In this document: positions 4,612 to 61,843 of the stretch, one piece after another
Numbering within the stretch: position 1 is the stretch's first letter
Layout: every line of letters begins with the position of its first letter
Origin: a virus
IMG/VR virus record: IMGVR_UViG_3300049847_000321
Location: 4,754-68,753 of that record
Strand: one strand, 5' to 3'
DNA: 64,000 bases
Program-made: the position numbers and the translations under genes
Notes under the pieces: model-generated
Databases searched by the model: none
The model's input: the letters and a program-made list of their open reading frames with translations, nothing else
What the model was told of the DNA's origin: nothing

Positions 4612-4616
4612 CTATC

Positions 4617-4817
4617 ATGACCATGAATAAAATAGACCTTATCAACATTATTGAAGATTTGGAAGATTGGGGAAACGAAGTTATTGACAAATACCTTTCC
4701 GGATCAGGAGATTGTTTCTGTAAAGAAGGTAGATACATTTGTGAAAATCACACCCTAATTAATAGATTCCTTGATATTATAAAAAGAGGAGAAAGTAAAT
4801 GCCAAGAACCTGGATAG
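4617..4817 (+). CDS. Hypothetical protein
   Basis: GGAG upstream of ATG 4617; fills the gap in the operon. Confidence 0.55.
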   Translation: MTMNKIDLINIIEDLEDWGNEVIDKYLSGSGDCFCKEGRYICENHTLINRFLDIIKRGESKCQEPG

Positions 4818-5713
4818 TCATTGACGCAAACTACCTTTGTTGGCGGGCCTTTCATACAACGGGGCAACTGTCATTCGGTGAAAAGCCGACTGGCGTGATC
4901 TTTGGTTTCTTGAAGGCCGTCCGAGAAATGCAGAAGCTATTTGGTCAGAGAGTTGTGTTTGCTTTCGATCATGGTAAGAACATTCGATTGGAGAAACTGC
5001 CGGGCTACAAGTCAACCAGAAAAGCCATGCGAAAGAAAATGTCTGAGGAAGACAAAGAGAAGCACCTCAAGATGCAGAAGCAAATTGAATTGCTCAAAAC
5101 CAAGTATCTTCGTCAAGTCGGGTATCGCAATGTCTTTTATCAAGAAGGTTATGAAGCCGATGATATTATTGCATCGGTCGTATTAAACTCAATTCCCAAA
5201 ACTGATACAATCGTGATTGTGTCGGCCGACAAAGACCTGTATCAGTTGATTAGAAAGGATCGAATCACGATCTACAACCCACATCGAATGGTCCGAATGA
5301 ACGGTGAGTTGTTCACAAAAACATATGATCTATTGAATCCTAGACATTGGGTAGGTGTGAAAGCAATTGCAGGTTGCAGCACAGATGATATTCCCGGTGT
5401 GCCACATGTGGGTGAAAAGACGGCAATCAAGATTCTGAAACTTTTGGAAGAGTGTGCGAAGACACCGAGAGTATTAACATCGGGCGAATCTCACATGTTG
5501 GCCAAGAATGTCGAATTCCGAAATAGAACAAAACGCAACATGAAGTTGGTGAGACTGCCTTATCCGGGCTGCAAGACTTTCCAATTGTGGAAAGATAAGG
5601 TCACGTCTGACAAATGGAATGAGTTGATGAAAAATCTAGGAATGAAATCTTTGATCGGCAAAGATGATCCGGTTTCACGGCGTAAAGCTGCGCGACGTGG
5701 CTTTAATTTTTAA
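4799..5713 (+). CDS. 5'-3' exonuclease / flap endonuclease (PolA N-terminal, T4 RNase H-like)
   Basis: IVIDANYL, FAFDHG, GYKSTR, GYEADDIIAS, IVSADKDLYQL, GCSTDDIPGVPHVGEKTA. Confidence 0.93.
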   Translation: MPRTWIVIDANYLCWRAFHTTGQLSFGEKPTGVIFGFLKAVREMQKLFGQRVVFAFDHGKNIRLEKLPGYKSTRKAMRKKMSEEDKEKHLKMQKQIELLKTKYLRQVGYRNVFYQEGYEADDIIASVVLNSIPKTDTIVIVSADKDLYQLIRKDRITIYNPHRMVRMNGELFTKTYDLLNPRHWVGVKAIAGCSTDDIPGVPHVGEKTAIKILKLLEECAKTPRVLTSGESHMLAKNVEFRNRTKRNMKLVRLPYPGCKTFQLWKDKVTSDKWNELMKNLGMKSLIGKDDPVSRRKAARRGFNF

Positions 5714-5725
5714 GGAGACCAAGTA

Positions 5726-6376
5726 ATGAAACTAATACCACTAGCCCTTCTACGAAAGAAAGGTGCCTGCCAAAAGCAACTATCTCTGATAGAAAACGAA
5801 TGGCCTAGCGGCATACCGCTTACGCAAGAGACTGCCGAAAGGTTCCTAGAACTGGAACTTGATATTGACTGGGTAGTAGAGAACCTGCTGACTGAGCAAG
5901 AGCAGACAGAATGCGAAAGGATTCAACAACCTGCAAAAGCAGAATACGAAAGGATCGAACAACCTGCATTAGCAGAATACGAAAGGATCACACAACCTGC
6001 ATTAGCAGAATACGAAAGGATCACACAACCTGCAAAAGCAGAATACTTAAGGATCGAACAACCTGCATATGCAGAATACTTAAGGATCGAACAACTTGCA
6101 TTAGTAGAATACTTAAGGATTCAACAACCTGCAAAAGCAGAATACAATAGGATTCAACAACTTGCATCAGCAGAATACAAAAGGATCGAACAACCTGCAT
6201 GGGCAGAATACTTAAGGATTCAACAACCTGCATTAGCAGAATACAAAAGGATTCAACAACCTGCATTAGCAGAATACTTCAGGATTAAACAACCTGCATT
6301 AGCAGAATACAAAAGGAAGAAAGTCATGGCTATTCTGGAACTACTTCTCAAACGAAAGGAAGAAAACGGACAATGA
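5726..6376 (+). CDS. 11-aa repeat cassette protein, copy 1 (12 repeats)
   Basis: 60-aa head + 12 x (AEYxRIxQPAx) + AEYKRKKVMAILELLLKRKEENGQ. Left flank TAAGGAGACCAAGTAATG. Confidence 0.85.
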   Translation: MKLIPLALLRKKGACQKQLSLIENEWPSGIPLTQETAERFLELELDIDWVVENLLTEQEQTECERIQQPAKAEYERIEQPALAEYERITQPALAEYERITQPAKAEYLRIEQPAYAEYLRIEQLALVEYLRIQQPAKAEYNRIQQLASAEYKRIEQPAWAEYLRIQQPALAEYKRIQQPALAEYFRIKQPALAEYKRKKVMAILELLLKRKEENGQ

Positions 6377-6939
6377 ATACAATTAAGGAATTACGAACGT
6401 TCTTATCTAAATACGGTCGCAAAGATCACTTGGTGTATGTCGGCATTGATCCTGGCGTGAGCGGGGCAATCGGAATCATCATGGGCAAACGAGTGTTCTC
6501 TATGAACATTCCGGTCAAGAAGATAAAGGTGAATAAAAAGAACAGAAAGATTTTTGACCATGATTTGATTATCAAGATTTTCGACTTATTGGAAGAGTAT
6601 GAAGAAACCATGACGGTGATGCTTGAGACTGGTCAGTTACTATGGAACACAGCGTTTGCTTCTTTCTCAATTGGTGTAAGCTACGGCATGTGGCCTTTGT
6701 TTCTGAAATCAAAAGGTTTCAATTTCAAAGAAGTTGTGCCACAAGTCTGGAAGAAGCAGATGGGTTTAATTTCAAAGAAGAAAGGTGCCGTCGCCAAGAA
6801 AGAGCAGTCTCGAACCAAAGCCTTGAAGCTGTTCCCAGAATTAGATTTGAAGTTCAAAAAGGATCACGATAGGGCGGAAGCAATTCTACTGGCCGTCTAC
6901 GCGCGACACTTAGATAAAGGAGCATGGAATGCCGACTGA
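6373..6939 (+). CDS. ruvC: RuvC-like Holliday junction resolvase
   Basis: VGIDPGVSGAIG, VMLE, VPQVWKK, DHDRAEAILLA. Confidence 0.85.
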   Translation: MNTIKELRTFLSKYGRKDHLVYVGIDPGVSGAIGIIMGKRVFSMNIPVKKIKVNKKNRKIFDHDLIIKIFDLLEEYEETMTVMLETGQLLWNTAFASFSIGVSYGMWPLFLKSKGFNFKEVVPQVWKKQMGLISKKKGAVAKKEQSRTKALKLFPELDLKFKKDHDRAEAILLAVYARHLDKGAWNAD

Positions 6940-7105
6940 AAACAAAGCCAATGAAGGTGAGGTTTATGTTGACAACATCAAACCAAAAAAAGTAAGTATT
7001 CCGAACATAATCAAATGCCCAAATTGTGACCAAGAATCTCTCAAGCAAGTCGAACATACGAACACTTGGAAGTGTTCTGAATGTTCGTATAAGGAGGTGC
7101 GATGA
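6929..7105 (+). CDS. Small Zn-ribbon protein (58 aa, not in ORF track)
   Basis: AAGGAG upstream; CPNC...WKCSEC; stop overlaps the csrA start. Confidence 0.6.
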   Translation: MPTENKANEGEVYVDNIKPKKVSIPNIIKCPNCDQESLKQVEHTNTWKCSECSYKEVR

Positions 7106-7308
7106 TGTTGGTAACTGGCATGGCCCGAGGTGAGTCTGTAAAGATTGGTGACGATATTTACATAACCGTACTACCCAAAAATAGCAGGAGCTCAAAAATA
7201 CGATTAGGAATTCAAGCACCGAAAGCAATTCCAATCATACGATTGAAAAACAAAAGGCATTTTGTCAAGGAGGATGATCGTGGGGAAAATGAAATGCCTT
7301 CATTGTGA
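7105..7308 (+). CDS. csrA: CsrA/RsmA-like translational regulator (divergent)
   Basis: MLV...GESVKIGDDIYITVL...IRLGIQAPKAIPIIR; SD AAGGAGG 7 nt upstream. Confidence 0.85.
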   Translation: MLVTGMARGESVKIGDDIYITVLPKNSRSSKIRLGIQAPKAIPIIRLKNKRHFVKEDDRGENEMPSL

Positions 7309-7669
7309 AGAGGTTAAATTCATTCGATGCAGAGGGCTATGTAGTTCATGCCACTCGAACCCATATGTGTTGAAGAAATTCCCTTCTAAAAACAATAAAG
7401 ACACCTTACCTAATAACAAACAACTCAAAATACCCAAATATCCGACACTTGCCCCTGCGGGCTCCTTAGATAAAATTCAAGTGCTGATTCAACGGCGTGA
7501 TAATGGAGAAGATTTATGGCACCCATTAGATAATCCGAGAATGACAAATGAAATTCGAGTTTCTGGTTATCGTTCTAACAAAATTGAACGAATAGGGCAA
7601 CTACCAATTAGAGAAAGAAACAGAACCAATGCTAAAAAGTCTCGAACTAAAAAACTTCCAAAGACATAA
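7262..7669 (+). CDS. Hypothetical Zn-finger protein (true start probably 7280-7289)
   Basis: CLHC...RCRGLCSSCH motif. Confidence 0.65.
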   Translation: MSRRMIVGKMKCLHCEEVKFIRCRGLCSSCHSNPYVLKKFPSKNNKDTLPNNKQLKIPKYPTLAPAGSLDKIQVLIQRRDNGEDLWHPLDNPRMTNEIRVSGYRSNKIERIGQLPIRERNRTNAKKSRTKKLPKT

Positions 7670-8735
7670 GTATTATAAATTGGAGTTTGATCGTGTCACA
7701 ACAATCATCGGACCTAGTGATTCGGGTAAGTCGGCCATCATTAGGGCTTTGCGATTTGTCGCATTCAACAGACCTAACAATAAACGCATTATTAAACATG
7801 GGGCTTCCTGCGCATCTGTTAGATTGCACGTTGCCGGAAAAAGTATTTTACGCAAGCGTGGGAACAGACGAACAAACCTTTATCGAATTGATTCAAAAAC
7901 GTTTCGGGCGATCGGAAGTAAAGTTCCGGACGCCATAGCCAGTATTCTGAACCTTTCAGAAGTCAACTTTCAAAAACAACTTGATCTGCACTTTTGGTTT
8001 GCTGATACGCCAGGTCAAGTATCGAAGGCATTGAATCAGATTGTCAATCTAGGTAAGATTGACACCTCATTGGCTTACGTCGCCAATCTGCAACGAAAAA
8101 CCAAAGCCAAGATTGAAGTGCTGCAAGATTCGATTGCCGACCTGAAATCTGAGAAAAGTCAGTTAGATTGGGTTCCACGGTTTCTATCTGATTTGTCGGC
8201 ATTGTCGGCCATATTTGCCGATATGGCCAGTAATGGCCCTAGAATCGCTTTATTGGCATCGTGCGCCGAAAGTATGGCCAATAGCCTATCGGCCCGTGCG
8301 CGTGCGGCTAATGCGATTATAGGGGCTTCAAATGCCGTTCAAATTGGCAGTCGAGCCATTGACATACAGAACCGACGAATGAAGTTGAAACGACTTGTTT
8401 CTGACCTGAGTCATGCCATCAAACTGACGAACTTACCTATTCCTGATTTGAATGATTTGAACAAGCAACGAATTAAAGCGGATGCCATTGCCGATAAAAA
8501 TTTAGGTTTGTTTAATCTGATCCAAGAAATAAGAGAGGCTAATAAGAACCTATGCGAAGCAAAAGCGAGTCTGGAAGTAGAAGCAAGACAGTTAGAAAAG
8601 GTAACAAAGGGGAAATGTCCGACGTGCGGAAAAGAGTCATCGCAATTTCTTGCGGTGACTTACACTTCTCAGAAAAGGCACCTGTCGCCCGTGCAGAGAA
8701 GGAAGATTGGCTTGAAGTGCAAGCACGATACCTAA
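7629..8735 (+). CDS. Rad50/SbcC/gp46-like ATPase, N-terminal half (Walker A, coiled coil, Zn hook)
   Basis: LKSLELKNFQRH, GPSDSGKSAIIRAL, Q-loop NFQKQ, coiled coil, KCPTCG. No signature motif or Walker B. Confidence 0.88.
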   Translation: MLKSLELKNFQRHKYYKLEFDRVTTIIGPSDSGKSAIIRALRFVAFNRPNNKRIIKHGASCASVRLHVAGKSILRKRGNRRTNLYRIDSKTFRAIGSKVPDAIASILNLSEVNFQKQLDLHFWFADTPGQVSKALNQIVNLGKIDTSLAYVANLQRKTKAKIEVLQDSIADLKSEKSQLDWVPRFLSDLSALSAIFADMASNGPRIALLASCAESMANSLSARARAANAIIGASNAVQIGSRAIDIQNRRMKLKRLVSDLSHAIKLTNLPIPDLNDLNKQRIKADAIADKNLGLFNLIQEIREANKNLCEAKASLEVEARQLEKVTKGKCPTCGKESSQFLAVTYTSQKRHLSPVQRRKIGLKCKHDT

Positions 8736-9568
8736 AGCAATTGAATGAGTTGTCAAGTCAACATGACAACGTTCCGATACTTTGCAGCGGCGATATATTC
8801 AATCAATGGAACAGTAGTCCTGCGCTTATCAATTTCTTGATTAAACGAATGCCACGGAATATGTACGCCATACCGGGCAATCACGATTTACCTTTGCACA
8901 ATTATGACGATATTAAAAAGTCAGCATATTGGACACTTGTTGAAGCGGAGGCAATCACTGATCTACAACCAATGCCTGAATGCAGTAGTCATATGTTCGA
9001 GGATATGATTGTGTGCCCGTATCCGTACAGTTATCCGTGCCCATATAATCCAGCAAAAGAAAAAGGGAATAAAATTTGTGTGGCGTTGATTCACGACTAC
9101 ATTTGGATCGACAAGTGCGGTTTCCCAAATGCAAACCCTTCTCGACGGATTTCTGAAAACAGCGAATGGGCAAAAAATCTTAAAGGTTTTGATGTTGCCA
9201 TATTTGGTGATAATCATATCGGATTCAAAACAACGTGTAACAAAGGTAAGACAATAATCTTGAATGGCGGTGCATTCATGCGCCGCAACATCGACCAGAT
9301 CAAATACAAACCTTTTGTTGGCTTGATCTACAGTGACGGTTCTGTTGAACAGCATTACCTTGACGTGTTTGAGGATAAGTTCATTGAAACAAAACTTGAA
9401 TGGAACGGCAATGAAATTGACATGAGTGATTTCTTGGAAACGCTTAAGAACGGAAGTAAAGCTGTCATTGATTTCACAGAAGCGGTTGAAAACTATCTGT
9501 CAAATCCGAAGTCACCGCTTTCAAAACAAGTGCGAAAGATTGTACGAGAGGCATTGGAGCAAACATGA
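8615..9568 (+). CDS. Mre11/SbcD/gp47-like metallophosphoesterase nuclease
   Basis: CGDLHF, CSGDIFN, IPGNHD, LIH, FGDNHIG. Start ATG 8615 chosen for its AAAGGGG SD. Confidence 0.9.
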   Translation: MSDVRKRVIAISCGDLHFSEKAPVARAEKEDWLEVQARYLKQLNELSSQHDNVPILCSGDIFNQWNSSPALINFLIKRMPRNMYAIPGNHDLPLHNYDDIKKSAYWTLVEAEAITDLQPMPECSSHMFEDMIVCPYPYSYPCPYNPAKEKGNKICVALIHDYIWIDKCGFPNANPSRRISENSEWAKNLKGFDVAIFGDNHIGFKTTCNKGKTIILNGGAFMRRNIDQIKYKPFVGLIYSDGSVEQHYLDVFEDKFIETKLEWNGNEIDMSDFLETLKNGSKAVIDFTEAVENYLSNPKSPLSKQVRKIVREALEQT

Positions 9569-9819
9569 TAATAATGGATGACTACGAAACAGTCAAGAGA
9601 AAGGTCGAAGAACTTCAAACCAGAATTGATAGGGCTTCCGGTGCTGTCAGTCAACTCAAATCGCAGCTCAAAAAAGAATTTGGGGTCAGCACTTTGAAGG
9701 AAGCGAAAGCACTCTACAAAAAGATGCTCGCGGAAGAACATGAAGCCTTGACCAAATGGAATAAGACTTTGGCTAAATTCAAAGAGGATTGGAAAGATGT
9801 TATCGAAGGCGATCAGTAA
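9565..9819 (+). CDS. Short coiled-coil protein (possible Rad50 arm segment)
   Basis: 84 aa with continuous heptad character, between Mre11 and the Rad50 C-half. Confidence 0.7.
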   Translation: MIIMDDYETVKRKVEELQTRIDRASGAVSQLKSQLKKEFGVSTLKEAKALYKKMLAEEHEALTKWNKTLAKFKEDWKDVIEGDQ

Positions 9820-10399
9820 AGAACTGACTGGTTATAAACGTATCGCGGAAAAAACCCGCTTAAATCGTTTGTCCCTGATTCAGAGACTAAAAGCCGATAA
9901 GTCTGCCCTAAAAGACGGGACAGCGTTTTTAGATAGGGTTATTGAGGCGCAATCTGTATTGCAGACTATCGCGCAGACTGTGCAACAGAAAGCGCATGAA
10001 CAAATAGCAACCATCGTTACGCGATGCCTGCAAGTGGTCTTTCCAGATGACCCATATGAATTCAAGATTCTGTTTGAAAAGAAAAGGTCGAAAACTGAGG
10101 CGCGGCTTGTGTTCTGCCGCAATGGTGAAGAGTTTGATCCGATTGAAGAAACGGGCGGTGGGTGTGTAGACGTGGCTTCGTTTGCTCTCCGCCTTGCCTG
10201 CATGTTGTTGCAGACACCTCAATCACGTAGATTGATGGTACTTGACGAACCGGTAAAGCACCTTGATGAAAATGCTATTGAAAGGTTCAGAGATTTGATT
10301 GAGACGCTGGCGAAAGAAATGAAGGTGCAGTTTATCATAATAACCCACTTTGAGCAACTGCAAGCCGGTAAAGTTGTTCGACTCACTAAAAGGAGTTAG
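9797..10399 (+). CDS. Rad50/SbcC-like ATPase, C-terminal half
   Basis: Coiled coil, signature-like ETGGGCVDVASFALR, Walker B/D-loop MVLDEPVKHLD, H-loop IITH. Confidence 0.88.
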   Translation: MLSKAISKELTGYKRIAEKTRLNRLSLIQRLKADKSALKDGTAFLDRVIEAQSVLQTIAQTVQQKAHEQIATIVTRCLQVVFPDDPYEFKILFEKKRSKTEARLVFCRNGEEFDPIEETGGGCVDVASFALRLACMLLQTPQSRRLMVLDEPVKHLDENAIERFRDLIETLAKEMKVQFIIITHFEQLQAGKVVRLTKRS

Positions 10400-42194: not shown

Positions 42195-42516
42195 CCTGCT
42201 CATACTCAATGGTGATTCCTCACACATACGCGCGTTTATGGGTTTTTCACCTCGACCTATGCTAATATGTCTCATGGTACTCACGTCCTGACAACAAAAG
42301 TTCTCTTGGCAACTGGCACCATATGTTTAGACGAAAGGTTTTGGCCTTGTCCGTTGCGCAGATCGTCTCAGCCCGTCATTGGCCTAGTTTTCTATCGGAC
42401 AACGTTTTAGGCCCGGTTTTGCAAAGGTAGTGAAATATAGCGAATCTTGGTGCGTTCCTTCGTACTTTCTATGGTAATTCCTTTATTTCTCCTATTTATT
42501 TGCGTAGGTGCCTCAT

Positions 42517-42643
42517 CCAAAGCCGTTTTTGCTAGCCGTTTTTGCTCACAAACCCACATTAACCTGTGTTTTTATAGGACAATCCTAACTCAACCCAAAG
42601 CCGTTTTTGCTCATCCTAAAGGGATCCTAAAGGGTTTTTGCTC
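42517..42643. repeat. Clustered short direct repeats in non-coding DNA
   Basis: AGCCGTTTTTGCT x3 (core GTTTTTGCT x4); ATCCTAAAGGG x2 in tandem. Confidence 0.9.
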
Positions 42644-42901
42644 TATTGCTCCCATATTGGCACACCATTGCACTTCCTATATAGCCCTTAATTCGTCCTC
42701 TCTATCTCTCTAGGGCGGCTTAAGTAGAGACTCGCCAACTACTACACTTACTCTACTGGAGAGCTACTATACAGGCTAAGTCCGTGAAGAACACTAGGTT
42801 CTTAGGTCCTTTTGCGTTTTCCGAAAAAATACCAAAACACACTTTTTATGGTTCTTGAGAACTTCCGCAAAAGTGAAATAACCGAGGGTGCTAATACCTA
42901 C

Positions 42902-42930
42902 AAAAAATAGGGCGGTAAGATACCGCCCTA
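42902..42930 (-). terminator. Intrinsic terminator ending the leftward accessory operon
   Basis: TAGGGCGGTA-tct-TACCGCCCTA followed by T6 on the minus strand. Confidence 0.88.
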
Positions 42931-42940
42931 CTGTAACCGT

Positions 42941-43417
42941 TTAATTATCAAACCAACAGATCAATCGTGCTGGTCTATGACCCTGCAAAGCACCGAGCCT
43001 TGCGAATTCCTTCATGATCCACTCGCCTAGAAATTCCCTCAGAGTTAACCTTCTGCCTTCAAATGGATCAATTGTTGTACAACCGCAATCGAACGCTTTA
43101 GGTCCGATCTGTCTAGTCACTCTGCGATCCCAGATTATCTGATCGAAATCCGTACTCAATAAATCATTGAGGTTGCACCAGCAGAAGTTATGGGCACCAT
43201 CATGCCATATGCGGAACTCTTTGAGAACCTCGTCTGACATGTCCAAGGGCACGCCCATTTTCGTACCGTGCCATTGTTCTACACCACTGTAGTTCCTCAC
43301 GTCGGCCAGCCAGCCGAAGAAACCATAGTGTCGGCCGAAGTCAATTTCGGATTTGACACACTTCCACGAGCCGTCGTCCTGTTTGACTTCCAAGTAAGCA
43401 TGAATGTCACAACCCAT
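42941..43417 (-). CDS. Conserved phage hypothetical protein (MGCDIH family)
   Basis: MGCDIHAYLE...RHYGFFGWLADVRNY...RLICWFDN. Confidence 0.8.
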   Translation of the reverse strand: MGCDIHAYLEVKQDDGSWKCVKSEIDFGRHYGFFGWLADVRNYSGVEQWHGTKMGVPLDMSDEVLKEFRIWHDGAHNFCWCNLNDLLSTDFDQIIWDRRVTRQIGPKAFDCGCTTIDPFEGRRLTLREFLGEWIMKEFARLGALQGHRPARLICWFDN

Positions 43418-43452
43418 TTCAGTCTCCTTTTTGATAGGCGATTGGTTAAAGA

Positions 43453-43893
43453 TCAGTCCGAAGAATCAACCTGTTCAACTAGACCGCACTTAGAACATTT
43501 ATACTGGTTCCAGCAGTTACCTAATCTCGCTATGTGTTCCATCTTATGAACACAACCAACGCGATACACTTTGACTTCCTCAGAGCATGTTCCAATGTAC
43601 TCGAACAGGAACGCCTTTTCGTGGAAGATTATCAGCGTCAAGCCGCTGACGTATTTGCTACCTGGCATCTTTGCCTGGAGATACACTTCGAGTTCCGGCG
43701 AGTACATTGACCTCATGTGCCAGTATTCCTTAAGCGGAACCTCAGTGACACACGATTTGGATACACATTGATGACCTTCTTTGCTTATCAATTTGAGGTT
43801 CAGCCAAGGGAACCTTTTATTGAGATACTTCAGGTCGTCTTGAGTCTCTTTTCGGATTGCATGATCGTCGTGTGCCAGTTTGTTAATCAACAT
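43453..43893 (-). CDS. Hypothetical protein with C-terminal Zn ribbon
   Basis: ATG overlaps the cassette copy 2 stop (TGATG); C-terminal CVH...KCSKCG. Confidence 0.65.
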   Translation of the reverse strand: MLINKLAHDDHAIRKETQDDLKYLNKRFPWLNLKLISKEGHQCVSKSCVTEVPLKEYWHMRSMYSPELEVYLQAKMPGSKYVSGLTLIIFHEKAFLFEYIGTCSEEVKVYRVGCVHKMEHIARLGNCWNQYKCSKCGLVEQVDSSD

Positions 43894-44273
43894 CACTTGG
43901 TCTCCTTTCGTTTGAGAAGTAGTTCCAGAATAGCCATGACTTTCTTCCTTAAGTATTCTGCTAATGCAGGTTGTTTGATCCCTAAGTATTCTGCCCATGC
44001 AGGTTGTATGATCCTTTTGTATTCTGCTAATGCAGGTTGTATGATCCTTTCGTATTCTGCTTTTGCAAGTTGTTGAATCCTTTCGTATTCTATCTGCTCT
44101 TGCTCAGTCAGCAGGTTCTCTACTACCCAGTCAATATTAAGTTCCAATTCTAGGAACCTTTCGGCAGTCGCTTTCGTAAGCGGTATGCCGCTAGGCCATT
44201 CGCTTTCTACCAGAGACAGCTGCTTTTGGCAGGCACGTTTCTTTCGTAGAAGGTCTAGTGGTATGATCTTCAT
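43893..44273 (-). CDS. 11-aa repeat cassette protein, copy 2 (4 repeats)
   Basis: 126 aa; flanked by a 30-bp direct repeat with 2 mismatches (43891-43920 and 44271-44300). Confidence 0.85.
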   Translation of the reverse strand: MKIIPLDLLRKKRACQKQLSLVESEWPSGIPLTKATAERFLELELNIDWVVENLLTEQEQIEYERIQQLAKAEYERIIQPALAEYKRIIQPAWAEYLGIKQPALAEYLRKKVMAILELLLKRKETK

Positions 44274-44310
44274 TACTTGGTCTCCTTTCGTTTGCGAAGT
44301 TACTTGGTCT

Positions 44311-44354
44311 GAAGAAAGAAAACCTCTAGCCCCCACGCGGATGAGGGCTAGAGG
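44311..44354 (-). terminator. Intra-operon terminator-like hairpin
   Basis: 10-bp stem CCTCTAGCCC/GGGCTAGAGG with a 12-nt loop, followed by TTTTCTTTC on the minus strand. Confidence 0.6.
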
Positions 44355-44398
44355 AAAAGCCAGAAGGAGACCAATCAAACTGGCTTTATTGTGCGGTA

Positions 44399-44704
44399 CT
44401 ATACCTTAGCTGGGCATTCCTCAATATCAATCTGTATCACAACGCCTGAAGCGTCGGCAAGCACCTCAAGTGCTTCCAATACATGACGTGCTGTTTGGAG
44501 ATCGTCAAACTCTTCCCAACGCTTTCTTGAGAACGGTATACACAAGCCTATCGGATATAAATCCTTTGGCACAATGATTGAATCCTCTTTGAATACACTA
44601 CCTACATAGTAGTATTCTTGATCGTCGGATTCTTTGATGACGATCCTGAAAATTTCTCCGCCAAGAGGCTTTCTCTTGAGGTTCTTAGAAGTTTTGGTCT
44701 TCAT
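44399..44704 (-). CDS. Hypothetical protein
   Basis: GAGG SD; within the operon. Confidence 0.6.
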   Translation of the reverse strand: MKTKTSKNLKRKPLGGEIFRIVIKESDDQEYYYVGSVFKEDSIIVPKDLYPIGLCIPFSRKRWEEFDDLQTARHVLEALEVLADASGVVIQIDIEECPAKV

Positions 44705-44734
44705 TTACGATTCCTCTCTATTTGTTTGTTGCGG

Positions 44735-44941
44735 TCATCTTACGCGAGTGATCCGCGTATCGTCCTCTAAGTAACGGCTTTCACCGACTTTCATTCCTCT
44801 TACAATCTCTGGCTTGAGCTCCGCTGATAGACGCTCCGCCACAACATTCTCTACGACCTTAGTGATAGGGCATCCTTGGCTATTCCTGCCCACATACACC
44901 TCAGTCATAATCAGATGGAAGAGTTTACCTTTCTTCATCAA
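44735..44941 (-). CDS. Hypothetical protein
   Basis: Overlapping stop/start with the upstream gene. Confidence 0.55.
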   Translation of the reverse strand: MMKKGKLFHLIMTEVYVGRNSQGCPITKVVENVVAERLSAELKPEIVRGMKVGESRYLEDDTRITRVR

Positions 44942-45297
44942 CAGACTCCTAATGAGGCCAGTACAGGATGAGCTCCTTTGTAAGCATCGTCACCGATGAC
45001 TTCACAAATGGCACCTTTAATAAAGACCTTTTCCCCATTTCTAGGAATAGGCATTACTCGGATACTATCATCCACTCTTTGAACGATTAGTACCTCACTG
45101 ACACAATGACCTCCGCATTCAATGTAGGTCACATTCAATTCGCCACCGAACAGTGAGATTGTCAGATGCCTACCAAAAGGGGCAGGCACTACAATGACTT
45201 GACCTTCGCACTGTTGAACATGTCCGATGGCTTGGCCATCTGAGTAGTGAGTGCGTGTATAGGTAAAGTCTTTTACAGAAACGGTGCTAATAATCAC
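44938..45297 (-). CDS. Hypothetical protein
   Basis: GAGGAGG SD; coupled to neighbours. Confidence 0.6.
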   Translation of the reverse strand: MIISTVSVKDFTYTRTHYSDGQAIGHVQQCEGQVIVVPAPFGRHLTISLFGGELNVTYIECGGHCVSEVLIVQRVDDSIRVMPIPRNGEKVFIKGAICEVIGDDAYKGAHPVLASLGVC

Positions 45298-45602
45298 GAT
45301 ACTTCCTCCTCAAGCCAGCGACCGTCGAACAGATTCAGAGGACTTACGCCGTCCTTTGATGTTTTCCATCCATCTACAATCAGACGCCGGCAACGTGCGC
45401 ACTGTTGGCTATACGGCCGGATGTTGATGTAGTAAACCTTACAAGTAAGTTCCTCTGTAGGCTTTGGACAATCCTTACAGATCCATCGGCCATTGATTAA
45501 ATAACCGACGTGATCGTAATCCTTCGGCTGTGCCCGTGGGCATGACGCATCATGCTGTGAGTTATCCGTTGATACACAGCACGGTCTAGTTACTTCGTTC
45601 AT
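45294..45602 (-). CDS. Hypothetical Cys-containing protein
   Basis: SD AAGGAGACC before ATG 45602; CKDC and CARC motifs. Confidence 0.6.
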   Translation of the reverse strand: MNEVTRPCCVSTDNSQHDASCPRAQPKDYDHVGYLINGRWICKDCPKPTEELTCKVYYINIRPYSQQCARCRRLIVDGWKTSKDGVSPLNLFDGRWLEEEVS

Positions 45603-45630
45603 CTTCGGTCTCCTTTTGTCAGGCGATTGG

Positions 45631-45939
45631 TTAGAGTTGGATGTCATCACATATGTCACGGACAAAGTTGATTTCGTCCATTGTTGTTTGTTCCGCTTCA
45701 TCTTCCGACATACTATACTCTCCGACGAGAGACGTAATCACATCCTGTAGCCCGTGCCAAGCACGAAGCCACTTCGATCCTTTATGGCGACCGGCCATCG
45801 CTTCTTGACCAAGATTCTCTAAAGCACCAATACACAATCTCTGTGCAGCTTGGTTGCCTTTCATGCACTCTCGGTAAAGATCATTCATTGAATGGAACTT
45901 GCGAAGTTTGCTTTTGGTAAGTCGTTTATATTTGGTCAT
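45631..45939 (-). CDS. Hypothetical protein
   Basis: ATG overlaps the cassette copy 3 stop (TGATG). Confidence 0.6.
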   Translation of the reverse strand: MTKYKRLTKSKLRKFHSMNDLYRECMKGNQAAQRLCIGALENLGQEAMAGRHKGSKWLRAWHGLQDVITSLVGEYSMSEDEAEQTTMDEINFVRDICDDIQL

Positions 45940-46322
45940 CACTTAGTCTCCTTTCGTTTGAGAAGTAGTTTCAAAATAGCCATGACTAACTTCCTTTTGT
46001 ATTCTGCATATGCAGGTTGTGCGATCCTTTTGTATTCTGCATATGCAGATTTTTGGCAGTCGTTTTCGTATTTTGCCCATGCAGGTTTTATGATCCTTAA
46101 GTATTCTGCTGATGCAGGCTGTGCGATCCTTTCGTATTCTACCTGCTCTTGCTCAGTTAGTAGGTTGTTCGCTACCCACTCAATATCAAGTTCCAATTTT
46201 AGGAACCTTTCGGCAGTCTCTTGCGTAAGCGGTATGCCTTGAGGCCATTCGCTTTCTACCAGAGACAGTTGCTCTTGGCAGGCACGTTTCTTTCGTAGAA
46301 GGGCTAGAGGTATGATCTTCAT
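45939..46322 (-). CDS. 11-aa repeat cassette protein, copy 3 (4 repeats, one degenerate)
   Basis: 127 aa; flanks TAAGGAGACCAAGTAATG and AAGGAGACTAAGTGATG. Confidence 0.85.
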   Translation of the reverse strand: MKIIPLALLRKKRACQEQLSLVESEWPQGIPLTQETAERFLKLELDIEWVANNLLTEQEQVEYERIAQPASAEYLRIIKPAWAKYENDCQKSAYAEYKRIAQPAYAEYKRKLVMAILKLLLKRKETK

Positions 46323-46334
46323 TACTTGGTCTCC

Positions 46335-46604
46335 TTAGTGGGGGCGATAGTTCTTCGGATCGTTGATATAAGTGTTCAGTCGGTTCCACAGTTCCGGTGT
46401 CATATTGAACTTTAAGGATCGCAGTCGCTCATTGTGAGCCGCGCATTGTTGACAAACCATTAGATGTTGATTCCTGAACTTCTCAGTCTCCTTTCTCAGT
46501 AAGTCCTTCGGCAAGTGGTCCGATACTTGTGACAAAGACTTGGCGAAGGAAATCACGTCTTTGCACTTCGGATCGAGTTTAAGTCTACCTTTTCTTTTCG
46601 CCAC
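46335..46604 (-). CDS. Hypothetical protein (C...H..VCxxC)
   Basis: GAGGAG SD with GTG start. Confidence 0.6.
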   Translation of the reverse strand: MAKRKGRLKLDPKCKDVISFAKSLSQVSDHLPKDLLRKETEKFRNQHLMVCQQCAAHNERLRSLKFNMTPELWNRLNTYINDPKNYRPH

Positions 46605-46606
46605 GG

Positions 46607-46840
46607 TTACTCCTCAAGTAGAATGTGTACTGTGTCTCCAACGATCTTGTGAGGAATCTTACCTGATAAGATTCTGTCCCAAAGATCATCCGACAATTCA
46701 GTCCAAGACTTCATCACTTGCCGGAGGCAAGATCGGTCCTTGGCAAAAGAGTAACCGTTCATAGCCCATGCGAAAATCGACGGAGCGTATATCATCTCGG
46801 TAGATTGCAAGATAATTTTCGTTTTAGTGGTCGTTTTCAT
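46607..46840 (-). CDS. Hypothetical protein
   Basis: Start context AAGGAGACCGAGTGATG. Confidence 0.65.
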   Translation of the reverse strand: MKTTTKTKIILQSTEMIYAPSIFAWAMNGYSFAKDRSCLRQVMKSWTELSDDLWDRILSGKIPHKIVGDTVHILLEE

Positions 46841-46879
46841 CACTCGGTCTCCTTTGTTTAAGCGATTCAGAACGGAAGA

Positions 46880-46904
46880 AGGCAGACGGAACGCCCGTCT
46901 GCCT
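46880..46904 (-). terminator. Intra-operon hairpin (terminator or processing site)
   Basis: AGGCAGACGG-gcgtt-CCGTCTGCCT followed by TCTTCC. Confidence 0.5.
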
Positions 46905-46937
46905 GGCGTACACGTATACTGTGGGCGAACCTTTATA

Positions 46938-47411
46938 CTACCCACGATCAATAACGGCATCGTGCGATGCGTTCCGATCTTCTCTGTCTTCCGAATCGAA
47001 GTCATCTTCCAGTAATACATCATGATCGGCCCCCACTGGAATTGTGGCATCTTCGTGCCGCGGAGGATCATCAATCTGATCGTTGTAAAAATGCCAAATT
47101 TCTGCGAAGTACCTAAGTATACATTCCATTTCTCTCAAAGAGAGTTCCTTTTTGTTCTCTTCCACATCATAAAAAACTTCTTCCAAAAGAAGCTCTCTGC
47201 CGTATTCAACAAACTGTTCAACCGTAAAAGTATGAGTCACGGAAGAACTGAAATCAATTTCATCAACAGATTTGCCAGAGATCCGACAAATTCTATCTCT
47301 CTCACGTCGGTCACATTGCGTGCCCGCCAATTGAGCAAATCGGTAAGAAGAAACTTCAGCGTAATACAGTTTGCACGCCAAACATTCTAATGCAGTTAAT
47401 GCAAGAGTCAT
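46938..47411 (-). CDS. Hypothetical acidic protein, first gene of the leftward operon
   Basis: SD GAGGAGACC before ATG 47411. Confidence 0.65.
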   Translation of the reverse strand: MTLALTALECLACKLYYAEVSSYRFAQLAGTQCDRRERDRICRISGKSVDEIDFSSSVTHTFTVEQFVEYGRELLLEEVFYDVEENKKELSLREMECILRYFAEIWHFYNDQIDDPPRHEDATIPVGADHDVLLEDDFDSEDREDRNASHDAVIDRG

Positions 47412-47820
47412 CGTAGGTCTCCTCTTTCTTCTCTGTCGATTGGAACTGACTCGACTCATCAGCGTGAGAAAATACTCACGGAAGATGCCCTTCTCTCGGA
47501 AGGGCATCGTTTCGTCTTTTGTCAGGAAGTCTTGCGTAGTCACGCCATATTGAGTTCGCCCCTGTGGCATTCAGGAACTACACTATTTTCGATGCCGCGT
47601 TGATGATCTGCTTTTGGATCTGCCTTTCTCTGCCGGACCCTGTGCAACTTTGGCTATGACTTTCCGGAGAGAACAGCCCTATCATTGCGGCTGGCGTTTT
47701 TAAGTTGTCAAGGAACTGAGCGGAGCTTGGCCGTCTGATTTCAGTCAGGTCTTCTCAAGGCTTCTCTCGGAAGCTGGCGTCTTATGCCTCTCGGCTGTTC
47801 GCCACGCCCAACATATCAAT
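47412..47820 (-). ncRNA. Candidate structured 5' leader / ncRNA
   Basis: About 400 nt between a promoter and the first SD-bearing ATG; several hairpins, including two with the core CTTC-CGAGA-GAAG. Confidence 0.4.
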
Positions 47821-47824
47821 TGAT

Positions 47825-47852
47825 ATTCTACTGAAAATGAAGGTATCGTCAA
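47825..47852 (-). promoter_or_regulatory. Sigma70-like promoter
   Basis: TTGACG-16 bp-TAGAAT. Confidence 0.6.
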
Positions 47853-48145
47853 GGCCGATTTCGTGTCTAGTTGCCCCCTAGACGCGCTATATATACTGTG
47901 GCATGCCGAATAGCGATAGACTGTAACGATTGTAGCGATTAGACAATTTACACTTCAGGTATTTTCAGCCCCAGGGCGCACCGAGGGAGATCCGCCGCAC
48001 TTCCTTTGAACGTGTTTTGCTCTATTTTTCTAGCAATTGTTCGTTAATGTGATGACCTTGAAAACTTGCACCTAAATGATCCCCATATATGGGTTTTCAG
48101 ACCTCAGAAAAGCACAAGCTCTGAAGGTATTCCCGGCCTCTTGAA

Positions 48146-53043: not shown

Positions 53044-53059
53044 GAAAGGAAACCAAGCA

Positions 53060-53770
53060 ATGAAGATCATACCACTAGACCTTCTACGAAAGAAAGGTGC
53101 CTGCCAAAAGCAGCTGTCTCTGGTAGAAAGCGAATGGCCTCAAGGCATACCGCTTACAAAAGCAACTGCCGAAAGGTTCCTAAAATTGGAACTTGATATT
53201 GACTGGGTAGCAGAGAATCTGCTGACTGAGCAAGAGCAGATAGAATACTTAAGGATCATACAACCTGCATGGGCAGAATACTTAAGGATCAAACAACCTG
53301 CATTAGCAGAATACGAAAGGATCGAACAACCTGCAAGGGCAGAATACAAAAGGATCGAACAACTTGCAAAAGCAGAATACGAAAGGATCATACAACCTGC
53401 ACTAGCAGAATACGAAAGGATCGAACAACCTGCATGGGCAGAATACAAAAGGATTCAACAACCTGCATATGCAGAATACAAAAGGATTCAACAACCTGCA
53501 TTAGCAGAATACAAAAGGATCATACAACCTGCATGGGCAGAATACGAAAGGATCGAACAACCTGCATATGCAGAATACAAAAGGATCCAACAACCTGCAT
53601 ATGCAGAATACAAAAGGATCGAACAACCTGCATATGCAGAATACAAAAGGAGCATAGCACCTGCATCAGCAGAATACAATAGGATCAAACAACTTGCAAG
53701 GGCAGAATACGAAAGGAAGAAAGTCATGGCTATTCTGGAACTACTCCTTAAGCGAAAGGAGACCAAGTGA
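53060..53770 (+). CDS. 11-aa repeat cassette protein, copy 4 (14 repeats)
   Basis: 236 aa; flanks AAGGAAACCAAGCAATG and AAGGAGACCAAGTGATG. Confidence 0.85.
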   Translation: MKIIPLDLLRKKGACQKQLSLVESEWPQGIPLTKATAERFLKLELDIDWVAENLLTEQEQIEYLRIIQPAWAEYLRIKQPALAEYERIEQPARAEYKRIEQLAKAEYERIIQPALAEYERIEQPAWAEYKRIQQPAYAEYKRIQQPALAEYKRIIQPAWAEYERIEQPAYAEYKRIQQPAYAEYKRIEQPAYAEYKRSIAPASAEYNRIKQLARAEYERKKVMAILELLLKRKETK

Positions 53771-54183
53771 TGAAAAAGAATCCAATTACTATTGCAGACC
53801 TTGAAGCGAGAGTCGCCAAAGGGGTTGAATATCTCAACCTCAACTATCCACAATGGCAGACTAAGATCGACCTAAGTGCATTCAACATCAATAATTGCAG
53901 ACAATGTATTTTCGGACAATTGTTAGAGAATTACTGGAAACTTGAAATGGAAGATCCTGAAGTTTACCATAAAGCATATTTATACGGATTTGATCTAATA
54001 CCTAGTCATTTAGACGAAGTTCTAGTAGAGACAACTGCATTCAATCAATACGGCGACCCTATCAATCCGAATGACAACATCGGTATTGATTCTTACACCT
54101 TAGAATTACAACGAATTTGGGTACGAACAATCAATAACCTTCAAACACAAGAACAAGGAGAATCCAATGTTGAGCGTCAGTAA
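53770..54183 (+). CDS. Conserved phage hypothetical protein
   Basis: RVAKGVEYL...WQTKIDL..FNI...CIFGQL pattern; TGATG coupling. Confidence 0.7.
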   Translation: MKKNPITIADLEARVAKGVEYLNLNYPQWQTKIDLSAFNINNCRQCIFGQLLENYWKLEMEDPEVYHKAYLYGFDLIPSHLDEVLVETTAFNQYGDPINPNDNIGIDSYTLELQRIWVRTINNLQTQEQGESNVERQ

Positions 54184-59283: not shown

Positions 59284-60466
59284 TATCCAAGACTTGTTTA
59301 CAGAAAACAAAATAACCACTACTGAAGCATTGCTTCTTTGGACAATCGACAATATGGTTAGAAGCAACTTTACTGGTTGTTGGGCATCAAACAAATTTCT
59401 TGGTAAGAGTGTTAAGGTTAAACAAAAACGACACGTTCAGAAAATGCTTAGACACCTTCAAGATTTAGGACTCATCCGTGTTGTTTCAAGGACATCAAAT
59501 TCAAGAGTCTTTGCAACCAAATGGAATGACATTGAAGATGATGACTTGGTGACGAAAACATCAAGTAGTGAACAATTGTACAGAGGGGATGTCTTTAACC
59601 ACACGGGGGGGATGCTTTATAAGACATCCCCCTCTTTATTACTACGTAATAAAGATATAAAGAGTAATACTGTCGGCTCTACCGAGCCGACGAAAAGAAA
59701 GAAGAAAAATGGAGAAAAGCCTATGCCAGAATGGAGCAACTTTAACAGCGTCTCCAGTCAAATGAAAGAGTCACCATCAACCTTCGACTTAGAATGCGCC
59801 AAACGACTGGCACATGTAGTTCAAGCCTCCAGAAAGGTTATGCGCAAATTTCAAACCTCTAAGTGGGCTACCAGCTTTCGAGACTTGCGACTGATCGACA
59901 AGGTAGAAGAAAAGCGAATCACCAAGGTTCTCGACTGGTACTGCGAGCATATGGGTGAAGACTACGTACCTCAAGCCTTCTCAGGCGAAGGTTTCAGAAG
60001 TAAGTGGCTCCAACTAGAAGCCGGGATGTTGCGCGATTTGGGACCAGAAGTTGAGGTGAGTCTTTCGGCTTTGGAGATCGTCAAGAAACTGAACCTGTAT
60101 AAGTGGCCAAAAGGTTCCGAAAAGCAGTTACCGCAGTTTGTTCAAATCAGCATGGATAATTACAACGATTTCGGTTTTGCAGTTGATGACTACAAAGGTA
60201 GATTGATTGTGACTAGATCAGAAATGAAAATGGATGAATTGCTTCACTTCCTATTGAAGCGAGAAGGCTTGCTGCCAACTAAATGGTTTATTGAGCATTG
60301 GTGGAAGCAAGTTCGTGAGCAAGTTTTCAATTGGGAAGAGTTTTCAGGTGATTTGAAATCGTACATTTTCAAACCAACACACAAGATGTTTCAAAGGTAT
60401 ATGCGGGGCAAAATTCAACCGAATCTGTATTCACAATGGGACCGCCTAATGAAGGAAACCAAGTAA
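59255..60466 (+). CDS. Replication initiator (N-terminal wHTH, lambda O-like central domain)
   Basis: WASNKFLG...VQKMLRHLQDLGLI; KWATSFRDLRLID...VLDWYC...FRSKWLQLE resembles the lambda O C-terminal domain. Confidence 0.7.
   Translation: MARVKGIALDIQDLFTENKITTTEALLLWTIDNMVRSNFTGCWASNKFLGKSVKVKQKRHVQKMLRHLQDLGLIRVVSRTSNSRVFATKWNDIEDDDLVTKTSSSEQLYRGDVFNHTGGMLYKTSPSLLLRNKDIKSNTVGSTEPTKRKKKNGEKPMPEWSNFNSVSSQMKESPSTFDLECAKRLAHVVQASRKVMRKFQTSKWATSFRDLRLIDKVEEKRITKVLDWYCEHMGEDYVPQAFSGEGFRSKWLQLEAGMLRDLGPEVEVSLSALEIVKKLNLYKWPKGSEKQLPQFVQISMDNYNDFGFAVDDYKGRLIVTRSEMKMDELLHFLLKREGLLPTKWFIEHWWKQVREQVFNWEEFSGDLKSYIFKPTHKMFQRYMRGKIQPNLYSQWDRLMKETK
59583..59670. promoter_or_regulatory. Candidate replication origin inside the initiator gene
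   Basis: GGGGATG(T)CTT twice direct and once inverted, followed by an AT-rich TTTATTAC-tac-GTAATAAA palindrome. Confidence 0.45.
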
Positions 60467-61044
60467 TGAAACTAATACCACTAGACCTTCTACGAAAGAA
60501 AGGTGCCTGCCAAAAGCAACTTTCTTTGGTAGAAAGCGAATGGCCTAGCGGCATACCGCTTACGAAAGCGACTGCCGAAAGGTTCCTAGAACTGGAACTT
60601 GATATTGACTGGGTAGTAGAGAACCTGCTAACTCAGCAAGAGCAGGTAGAATACAAAAGGATCGAACAACCTGCATATGCAGAATACAAAAGGATCGAAC
60701 AACCTGCATATGCAGAATACAAAAGGATCAAACAACCTGCATATGCAGAATACAAAAGGATCGAACAACCTGCATATGCAGAATACGAAAGGATCAAACA
60801 ACCTGCATTAGCAGAATACTTAAGGATCGAACAACCTGCATGGGCAGAATACGAAAGGATCGAACAACTTGCATATGCAGAATACGAAAGGATCGAACAA
60901 CCTGCATTAGCAGAATACAAAAGGATCAAACAACCTGCATATGCAGAATACGAAAGGATCGAACAACCTGCATTAGCAGAATACAAAAGGAAGAAAGTCA
61001 TGGCTATTCTGGAACTACTTCTCAAACGAAAGGAGACCGAGTAA
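60466..61044 (+). CDS. 11-aa repeat cassette protein, copy 5 (10 repeats)
   Basis: 192 aa; flanks AAGGAAACCAAGTAATG and AAGGAGACCGAGTAATG. Confidence 0.85.
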   Translation: MKLIPLDLLRKKGACQKQLSLVESEWPSGIPLTKATAERFLELELDIDWVVENLLTQQEQVEYKRIEQPAYAEYKRIEQPAYAEYKRIKQPAYAEYKRIEQPAYAEYERIKQPALAEYLRIEQPAWAEYERIEQLAYAEYERIEQPALAEYKRIKQPAYAEYERIEQPALAEYKRKKVMAILELLLKRKETE

Positions 61045-61556
61045 TGAAGATCATACCTCTAGCCCTTCTACGAAAGAAAGGTGCCTGCCAAAAGCAACTT
61101 TCTTTGGTAGAAAGCGAATGGCCTAGCGGCATACCGCTTACGAAAGCGACTGCCGAAAGGTTCCTAAAATTGGAACTTGATATTGAGTGGGTAGCGAACA
61201 ACCTACTAACTGAGCAAGAGCAGGTAGAATACGAAAGGATCGCACAGCCTGCATCAGCAGAATACTTAAGGATCGAACAACCTGCATATGCAGAATACGA
61301 AAGGATCGAACAACTTGCGAGGGCAGAATACGAAAGGATCAAACAACCTGCATATGCAGAATACTTAAGGATTCAACAACCTGCATTAGCAGAATACGAA
61401 AGGATCAAACAACTTGCATTAGCAGAATACTTAAGGATCGAACAACTTGCATATGCAGAATACGAAAGGATCAAACAACCTGCATCAGCAGAATACAAAA
61501 GGAAGAAAGTCATGGCTATTCTGGAACTACTTCTCAAACAAAAGGAAACCAAGTGA
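61044..61556 (+). CDS. 11-aa repeat cassette protein, copy 6 (8 repeats), tandem with copy 5
   Basis: 170 aa; shares its left junction with copy 5; right flank AAGGAAACCAAGTGATG. Confidence 0.85.
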   Translation: MKIIPLALLRKKGACQKQLSLVESEWPSGIPLTKATAERFLKLELDIEWVANNLLTEQEQVEYERIAQPASAEYLRIEQPAYAEYERIEQLARAEYERIKQPAYAEYLRIQQPALAEYERIKQLALAEYLRIEQLAYAEYERIKQPASAEYKRKKVMAILELLLKQKETK

Positions 61557-61843
61557 TGAAAAAGAACCCGATGTATCGCTACAAAATAACCTTTCCACTC
61601 AATCGCTTAAAAGAATTGAGACTAAAAGCAAACATGACCCAAAGAGACGTGTGCAAAGAGACTGGCATCCCTCCGGGAACTTATTCTGGAATAGAATATG
61701 GTGTCAACGTGCATTTAAGTTCCGCATTAAAATTGGCACAATTATTTAATTTGTCAGTTGAACAGATTTGGGAAGATCAGTTTGAAGCTGATCGACAGCG
61801 AATCCAAGAAATGAAAAAGGAGGAAGTCAATGAAATCGCTTGA
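61556..61843 (+). CDS. XRE-family HTH regulator
   Basis: MTQRDVCKETGIPPGTYSGIEYG...ALKLAQLFNLSVEQIW. Confidence 0.88.
   Translation: MKKNPMYRYKITFPLNRLKELRLKANMTQRDVCKETGIPPGTYSGIEYGVNVHLSSALKLAQLFNLSVEQIWEDQFEADRQRIQEMKKEEVNEIA

Follow-up and report, generated by a model that had tools for sequence, protein, structure and literature searches.

The stretch analysed here (the window) comprises 64,000 nt of the IMG/VR virus record IMGVR_UViG_3300049847_000321, corresponding to positions 4754-68753 of a record of 77,099 bp with an estimated completeness of 95%, and it carries six paralogous copies of a small gene, here called the cassette, whose ends are marked by a short, strongly conserved motif. 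The genome is that of a tailed phage, is of the lytic type and has genes for terminase subunits, a clamp loader, helicases, a primase, a replication initiator and a NusG-like protein. The start of the record from position 21 onward (within 1-140) recurs as its last 120 nt (76980-77099). Although the record is classed as linear, this overlap of the ends points to a circular or terminally redundant genome. Across the whole genome there are eight intact copies of the cassette at seven places and on both strands; c1 to c6 lie in the window and the other two, cA and cH, beyond it. The cassette is a promoterless gene that sits in line with its neighbours.

With the exceptions described below, each cassette begins and ends in a 17-nt motif, AAGGAGACCAAGTRATG. 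The left motif comprises the cassette's own Shine-Dalgarno (SD) sequence, a 7-nt spacer and the ATG, and the stop codon of the upstream gene lies 0-2 nt from it or overlaps it. The right motif encodes the last codons K-E-T-K and the stop, and the overlapping TGATG supplies the ATG of the next gene, which begins open reading frames (ORFs) of 95-170 amino acids (aa) at c2, c3, c4, c5/c6 and c6, of 43 aa at cH and of 10 codons at cA (Table 1). The original prediction had noticed that the KETK* end matches the cassette's own ribosome-binding region, and we confirmed that the ends are true direct repeats serving as SD, stop and start. The details given in its support were reproduced as well: the 30-nt repeats flanking c2 (ACTTCGCAAACGAAAGGAGACCAAGTAATG versus ACTTCTCAAACGAAAGGAGACCAAGTGATG) differ at 2 positions; the left and right motifs of c3, c4, c5 and c6, said to agree within 1-3 mismatches, differ at 2, 3, 2 and 3 of the 17 nt, respectively; c5 and c6 share a single junction; and c1, described as keeping only AAGGA at its right end, diverges after AAAGGA. 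Also present is the extra AGACCAAGTAA upstream of c2, which had been taken for a scar; it is either a scar left when a tandem partner was deleted or the result of a slip that duplicated 27 nt.

Table 1. Cassette copies, motifs, neighbouring elements, recombination genes and tandem relatives. Positions are those of the window, except for cA and cH (whole genome) and the relatives in the last two lines.
Feature	Position	Strand	Remarks
cA	genome 406-918		no left motif; canonical right motif
cH	genome 74736-75446		
c1 left motif, AAGGAGACCAAGTAATG	5712..5728	+	shares its first two bases with the TAA stop of the FEN gene
c1	5726..6376	+	216 aa; ~12 repeats of 11 aa
c2 right 30-nt repeat, ACTTCTCAAACGAAAGGAGACCAAGTGATG	43891..43920	-	encodes LLLKRKETK*; ATG starts gene 43453-43893
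c2	43893..44273	-	126 aa; 4 repeats
c2 left 30-nt repeat, ACTTCGCAAACGAAAGGAGACCAAGTAATG	44271..44300	-	SD and start, plus 13 nt resembling the tail of a lost upstream copy
Extra AGACCAAGTAA	44300..44310	-	27 nt upstream of the c2 motif
Terminator-like hairpin	44323..44354	-	14 pairs, then a T-rich tail; separates c2 from the upstream gene
Antisense copy of the motif core (UUGGUCUCCUU in RNA)	44364..44374	-	perfect over 11 nt
c3 right motif, AAGGAGACTAAGTGATG	45937..45953	-	ATG starts gene 45631-45939
c3	45939..46322	-	127 aa
c3 left motif	46320..46336	-	shares its first two bases with the TAA stop of the upstream gene
Solo motif, AAGGAGACCGAGTGATG	46838..46854	-	fronts an unrelated 77-aa gene, 46607-46840; one mismatch from the consensus
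Box B, TAACCAATCGCCTatCAAAAAGGAGACtgaa	43418..43448	-	one gene downstream of c2
Box B, second copy	45603..45633	-	one gene downstream of c3; flanking genes unrelated to those at the first copy
c4 left motif, AAGGAAACCAAGCAATG	53046..53062	+	2 nt past the stop of the NusG-like gene
c4	53060..53770	+	236 aa; 14 repeats
c4 right motif	53756..53772	+	ATG starts gene 53770-54183
c5 left motif	60452..60468	+	upstream replication-initiator gene reads through and ends ...MKETK* on the motif's TAA
c5	60466..61044	+	192 aa
c5/c6 single common junction	61030..61046	+	tail, motif, head; equivalent to a circle junction
c6	61044..61556	+	170 aa
c6 right motif	61542..61558	+	ATG starts a helix-turn-helix regulator gene, 61556-61843
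UvsX-like recombinase	3264-4352		
5'-3' exonuclease FEN	4799-5713		
Holliday-junction resolvase	6373-6939		
Rad50	7629-10399		split around Mre11
Relative in L037	L037:2-917		three tandem copies with ATGA overlaps
Relative in P0054			two copies fused in one called ORF

The motif is far more frequent than expected. Allowing up to 3 mismatches, we found 12 matches in the window against an expectation of 0.29, taken from dinucleotide shuffles (mean 0.29, maximum 2). Ten of these matches are the cassette ends belonging to c1-c6, and the remaining two are a solo site with a single mismatch (46838-46854, minus strand) and a weak 3-mismatch match at 33957. We measured the flanking repeats by a flank score, defined as the best ungapped match (match +1, mismatch -2) between the 60 nt before a start codon and the 100 nt around the stop codon of the same gene. 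The score reached a maximum of 10 in ~109 non-cassette genes of the phage and of 12 in 105 genes from other phage loci, and was at least 11 in seven of the eight cassettes (11-30 in the six for which it is listed), the exception being cA, which has no left motif. Flanking repeats are not a general property of gene starts in this phage.

The boundaries of the repeated unit coincide with the motif. Similarity between copies begins at the first A of the motif in c1, c3 and c5 and 2 nt further out in c4 and cH, and it ends at the ATG in all copies. The two ends are also distinguished from one another by one base: TAATG is found in six of the seven left motifs (c4 has CAATG) and in the inner junction of the c5/c6 pair, and TGATG in all six solitary right motifs and at the solo site. 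This pattern would persist through repeated excision and integration if the crossover lay upstream of that base.

Two copies depart from the canonical arrangement: c1 and cA each have one canonical end and one end that meets a local start region at 5 nt (AAGGA or AATGA). In c1 the tail diverges after AAAGGA (KRKEENGQ*) and runs into the start region native to the resolvase gene, with which it overlaps by ATGA; the tail ...CGAAAGGA is followed by AGAAAACGGACAATGA, the spacer and start belonging to that gene. In cA it is the left end that is hybrid, the local start region AAAGGATTGGAGAGTGACGA meeting the cassette ORF at AATGA. Both end types are expected from the integration of a circle of the order tail-motif-head through a single crossover, which would fall in the SD core or at the start codon. 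When c1 is deleted on this model, the sequence becomes ...TTTTTAAGGAAGAAAACGGACAATG, a normal compact junction of FEN stop, SD and start.

Ahead of the solo motif lie a hairpin, a TC-rich run and a stretch that resembles the cassette tail, a layout close to that of c2's left flank. A likeness between the solo site and the cassette head beyond the ATG was rejected as chance; it needs out-of-frame gaps. A second sequence shared between gene junctions, box B, consists of ~31-36 nt comprising a stop, TAACCAATCGCCT, an SD and a start, with TAACCAATCGCCTnnCAAAAGGAGAC...ATG common to the junctions of two unrelated gene pairs. Its presence at two unrelated gene pairs indicates that the sharing of junction sequences is not limited to the cassette and is a broader feature of the operon.

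All eight cassette ORFs are intact, and the DNA encoding the N-terminal domain (N-domain) is 86-97% identical among copies, with a ratio of nonsynonymous to synonymous change (pN/pS) of ~0.41. These values indicate that the protein is under selection and that the copies are working genes and not debris. In an AlphaFold model with a mean predicted local distance difference test (pLDDT) score of 96, residues 1-55 form a compact helical domain with two short strands, and residues 57-125 form one unbroken helix made of 11-residue AEYxRIxQPAx repeats, of which there are 4 to 14 per copy, the tail keeping the same period. The N-domain invariants are an A-C pair and a W (A14, C15 and W49 in c2). Among 1.8 billion proteins, 2827 representative clusters matched an N-domain profile, and for 262 of these the match was at 1e-10 or better; the traits of this family are an N-domain of ~60 aa, 11-mers of the type xAEYxxxxxPA and a short hydrophobic or basic tail, all of which the cassette protein shares. 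The family is large, has no name and is abundant in viral metagenomes. Pfam and PHROGs gave no match to the cassette protein, none of the profile matches has a Pfam family, the protein's neighbours in the Atlas are all viral hypothetical proteins, and Foldseek searches against BFVD and the AFDB clusters returned uncharacterised matches only and no nuclease-like fold. At a guess, the cassette encodes an early-expressed, oligomeric protein whose stalk length matters.

We compared nine independent loci with N-domain relatives in other phages. In L029 and L032, which are 87-95% identical, the gene lies between two copies of TTTNTAACCGAGGAGAA (flank score 14), a sequence that combines the upstream stop with the SD and has no further copy in either contig. 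In L033, the closest relative (47% identity), the gene lies between TTCGACAACTGAGGAAA and TTCGGCAACTGAGGAAA, the repeat being TTCGRCAACTGAGGAAA (flank score 14). Flanking repeats of 17 nt are thus found in two of the nine independent relatives, compared with none of ~214 control genes at a score of at least 13, a difference that chance is unlikely to produce (hypergeometric ~0.002). The repeats have different sequences in different phages. This speaks for a process in which local sequence is duplicated or used, and against recognition of a specific site. Family members also occur in tandem or in several copies elsewhere, namely in L032, L037 and P0054, and the family tails in L027 and L035 likewise embed the SD of the next gene.

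One distant syntenic phage, L040, provides a view of the c1 locus without the cassette. Its proteins are 33-52% identical to those of the window over UvsX, FEN, the resolvase, Rad50N, Mre11 and Rad50C, and its gene order (L040 127-6621), UvsX-FEN-resolvase-Rad50N-Mre11-two small ORFs-Rad50C, matches that of window positions 3264-10399. This conserved order also shows that the Rad50 gene split around Mre11 is a conserved trait and not an artefact of assembly or frameshift. Between FEN and the resolvase L040 has no cassette and only 95 nt with a tiny ORF, so that c1 was either gained in the lineage studied here or lost in that of L040.

We consider the best reading of these results to be short-homology recombination at a translation-initiation motif without a dedicated enzyme, similar in its working to the promoter-early stem-loop cassettes discussed below, and we hold it with roughly even confidence. 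An exchange between the two flanking motifs would loop the gene out as a circle with one motif, an unequal exchange would produce a tandem, as at c5-c6, and a single exchange between the circle junction and another gene start would lead to insertion, whether the target has the whole motif or only an AAGGA or AATG core. Such an insertion would spare the upstream stop and provide both an SD and a coupled start for the downstream gene; translation of the operon would thereby go on uninterrupted. The recombination itself would be general, of the UvsX type, and the phage encodes a general set for it, consisting of the UvsX-like protein, FEN, the Holliday-junction resolvase and Mre11/Rad50. The tandem pair, the hybrid ends of c1 and cA, the solo motif and the independent repeats in other phages fit single-crossover insertion of a circular or tandem-junction intermediate. 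Mobility itself, the circle, the direction of change (gain versus loss) and any present activity are inferred.

The original prediction had likewise proposed that a circle excised between the repeats could recombine into any gene start with this ribosome-binding site, and that phage RecA, UvsY and single-stranded DNA-binding protein (SSB) genes could supply the recombination. Its observation is confirmed and is extended here by the hybrid ends of c1 and cA, the solo motif, the own repeats of two of nine relatives and the cassette-free locus of L040, and its interpretation is partly supported. An exchange would indeed leave, and an insertion regenerate, a working junction, but no circle or empty-site junction was seen in the assembled contigs of two runs, which drop rare forms. 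A RecA/UvsX-like protein is present, but UvsY and SSB gave no match to their Pfam models, the UvsY result being uninformative as that model matched no control either. The check for a remaining repeat copy at an empty orthologous locus, which the original prediction had suggested, covered only the very distant L040, and this phage lacks both the cassette and the motif.

Several observations weigh against recombination at the motif. Five loci carry the full motif on both sides, for which a single crossover would need targets that already bear the motif, or later conversion. The copies are 3-14% diverged in the N-domain, so that, judged by their sequences, the spread is not recent. Lost copies seem to have left remnants in the left 30-nt repeat of c2 and at the solo site, a feature as compatible with the decay of an array as with mobility. 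Seven of the nine relatives elsewhere have no flanking repeat (flank score 8 or less), and in L033 the left repeat lies inside the end of the upstream gene's coding sequence, so that removing the insert in silico leaves no tidy upstream stop or junction; the history of the L033 gene may differ from that of the cassette. Close relatives of the phage are absent from the collections searched, which leaves no presence/absence comparison at the nucleotide level. Finally, the contigs from two public runs, which drop rare forms, contain no circle or empty-site junction, and every loose contig end in them is explained by cross-mapping of paralogs: those at 43891 (run X2) and 61028 (run X1) are cross-mapping flanks of cH.

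The main alternative is a passive history, in which an old tandem array, each tail overlapping the next start, was scattered by rearrangement, insertion and deletion, and the motif was kept only for translational coupling and has no role in movement. The tandem pair c5/c6, the tandem or multi-copy family members of other phages, the 3-14% divergence of the copies and the tails in L027 and L035 that embed the SD of the next gene would all suit such a history, as would the left flank of c2, with 13 further nt of cassette tail and the scar, and the resemblance of the solo site to a tail remnant. We nevertheless regard it as rather unlikely. Five of the left boundaries lie at the motif, or 2 nt out, with no upstream tail, which would need five precise and independent trims, and copies sit between conserved replication and recombination genes that adjoin in the distant relative. 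Moreover, the hybrid ends of c1 and cA are predicted by insertion and not by decay, and the fixed difference between TAATG on the left and TGATG on the right is unexpected if the ends descend from identical array junctions. It is improbable, in our judgement, that the 17-mer is mainly a regulatory or translational signal, such as a repressor operator or an efficient start, which selection and gene conversion keep uniform and of which the direct repeats are a by-product. The motif is often conserved at 17 of 17 positions, compared with 86-97% identity in the N-domain. Moreover, AAGGAGAC is used by several genes of the same leftward operon that are not cassettes, and regulation is suggested by the perfect antisense copy of 11 nt that lies upstream of c2 and would, by prediction, pair with the SD. 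On the other hand, a signal would explain neither the spread to seven loci nor the hybrid ends of c1 and cA, identity of the 7-nt spacer is needless for SD function, and the flanking repeats in other phages are quite different, one of them not being located at an SD. A regulatory role of the motif is compatible both with recombination at the motif and with the decay of an array.

A true site-specific system, be it integron-like, a transposon or a homing element, with a dedicated enzyme that recognises the motif, would account for the uniform ends at many loci and for the solo site, which resembles an empty target, yet it appears highly improbable. The tyrosine recombinase model PF00589 has no match in the 77-kb genome and matched all control genomes; serine recombinases, HNH and GIY-YIG nucleases and reverse transcriptases are also missing from this 95%-complete genome, in which DDE transposases were not searched for specifically. 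The cassette protein itself is a small domain with a long helix and gave no nuclease-like fold match. An inverted-repeat scan of 43800-44400 found none at the cassette ends, and hence neither terminal inverted repeats nor hairpins of the attC type, and the flanking repeats differ between phages. The original prediction had compared the cassette with those of integrons, a comparison that the data do not support as far as membership is concerned. Integron cassettes are similarly promoterless single-gene units that lie in line and are expressed from upstream signals, and excision as a circle followed by reintegration is proposed for the present cassette. In contrast to them, it has no IntI-type integrase, its ends are direct repeats and not an attC inverted-repeat hairpin, and there is no single attI platform, the copies occurring at seven loci on both strands through what would be homology-driven recombination.

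Among known systems, the promoter-early stem-loop (PeSL) regulatory cassettes of T4-type phages provide a parallel (Arbiol et al. 2010, PMC2839356; Comeau et al. 2014, PMC4122927). Their mini-circles arise when the SD or ATG of one flanking motif recombines with the -10 box of another, and the crossovers were mapped next to the SD and the ATG (PMC2839356). As with PeSLs, a short conserved boundary sequence takes in the upstream stop, the SD and the downstream start and flanks small genes without known function; the phage has T4-like recombination genes, and in the proposed working its own machinery recombines flanking copies to give circles, here putative, as well as insertions and deletions. 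The differences are equally clear. The repeat described here is 17-30 nt long and partly coding (the last four codons and the stop), no site resembling a sigma-70 promoter is found at any cassette end in 42500-48000, for which the 17-mer is too short, and there is no stem-loop in the motif, only c2 having a hairpin nearby (44323-44354), outside the repeat. The motif travels with one gene family instead of bordering many different ORFans, and insertion would preserve translational coupling and not a transcription unit. The cassette is neither an integron nor a PeSL.

Other mobile elements and exchange sites can also be compared with the cassette. The ultra-small mycobacteriophage mobile elements (MPMEs) are ~0.4 kb long, contain one small ORF, are scattered, and vary in presence and absence between relatives; they have terminal inverted repeats and a putative transposase ORF and insert regardless of translation signals. 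The cassette resembles them as a small single-ORF element scattered in a phage genome, but differs from MPMEs, insertion sequences (IS) and miniature inverted-repeat transposable elements (MITEs) in that it has no terminal inverted repeats and its ORF encodes a small domain and a helix, DDE transposase models not having been run. It is also unlike a free-standing homing endonuclease gene, as HNH and GIY-YIG are absent from the genome and the protein has no nuclease fold match. In the modular theory of phage evolution of Susskind and Botstein, conserved gene-junction sequences of lambdoid phages were reportedly proposed as sites of homologous exchange between unrelated genes. Box B fits that picture; there, however, the exchange takes place between phages at equivalent positions, and no single gene multiplies through its own start region.

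A wider proposal would be that the family as a whole is a recombinase-free mobile cassette that multiplies in phage genomes and passes between them by Campbell-type single crossovers at translation-initiation regions, with SD, stop and start as the attachment site. We put this forward tentatively, as possible but on balance doubtful. If it is true, every insertion would be translationally seamless, and phages would have a general route for acquiring small genes inside operons. How small genes enter packed phage operons and multiply there without breaking expression is poorly understood. To our knowledge, the only worked example is the shuffling of genes by PeSLs in T4-type phages, for which promoter-terminator modules are needed. 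In the present case recombination would act on the ribosome-binding, stop and start signal that the gene has at both ends; this would be a smaller and more general device, usable by any phage with a homologous-recombination system. Two unrelated phage lineages with 17-nt repeats of their own, together with the frequent tandem or multi-copy state, make the idea testable beyond one genome. The eight intact copies in 77 kb argue for selection on copy number or on diversity of stalk length.

Searches for close relatives at the DNA and protein level gave none. INPHARED holds nothing similar to 43400-46700 (blastn), DNA patterns of the cassette tail and head have no match in metagenome or viral contigs, and a metagenome protein scan returned only proteins with AEY repeats behind a different N-domain. 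In IMG/VR the relatives of the phage genes have at most ~30% identity (FEN 27-31%), and queries with the cassette and the NusG-like gene gave no match.

The junctions were examined in assembled Logan contigs and unitigs of the only two public runs that contain the phage, the source run (X1) being from freshwater sediment. Unitigs cross nine of the ten junctions in the window, and those of the source run cross c2-left, c3-right, c3-left, c4-left, c4-right, c5-left and c6-right; c2-right is not among the unitig pieces listed. We rejected an assembly artefact as the origin of the arrangement, given that unitigs cross the junctions and that the same phage is present in the second sample.

The antisense copy of the motif core, the only one in the window, lies 76 nt upstream of the c2 SD, beyond the terminator hairpin. 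A predicted RNA fold (minimum free energy -44.3 kcal/mol, z -3.4) pairs 44364-44374 with 44277-44287, which contains the c2 SD. As modelled, the antisense copy may sequester the c2 SD in transcripts that read through the terminator.

The c5-c6 pair shows a further peculiarity in its motifs: the outer ends share a rare AAGGAAACC variant, and the inner junction has AAGGAGACCGAG, which is also present at the left end of cH and at the solo site. This distribution of variants hints that the pair may have arisen from a second insertion into an occupied site. Beside c2, the depth of the source-run contigs falls to ~0 over 43164-43827 (region 43156-43827), and one source-run contig carries 99 nt unlike the window immediately before 43156; the gap could be a strain variant with other gene content or a filtering hole. 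Inside c4, one source-run contig links 53703 back to 53242, a distance of 462 nt or 14 repeat units, and this back-joint was read as an ambiguity of the repeat array; it would represent either a longer c4 allele in the population or cross-mapping of the cH array.

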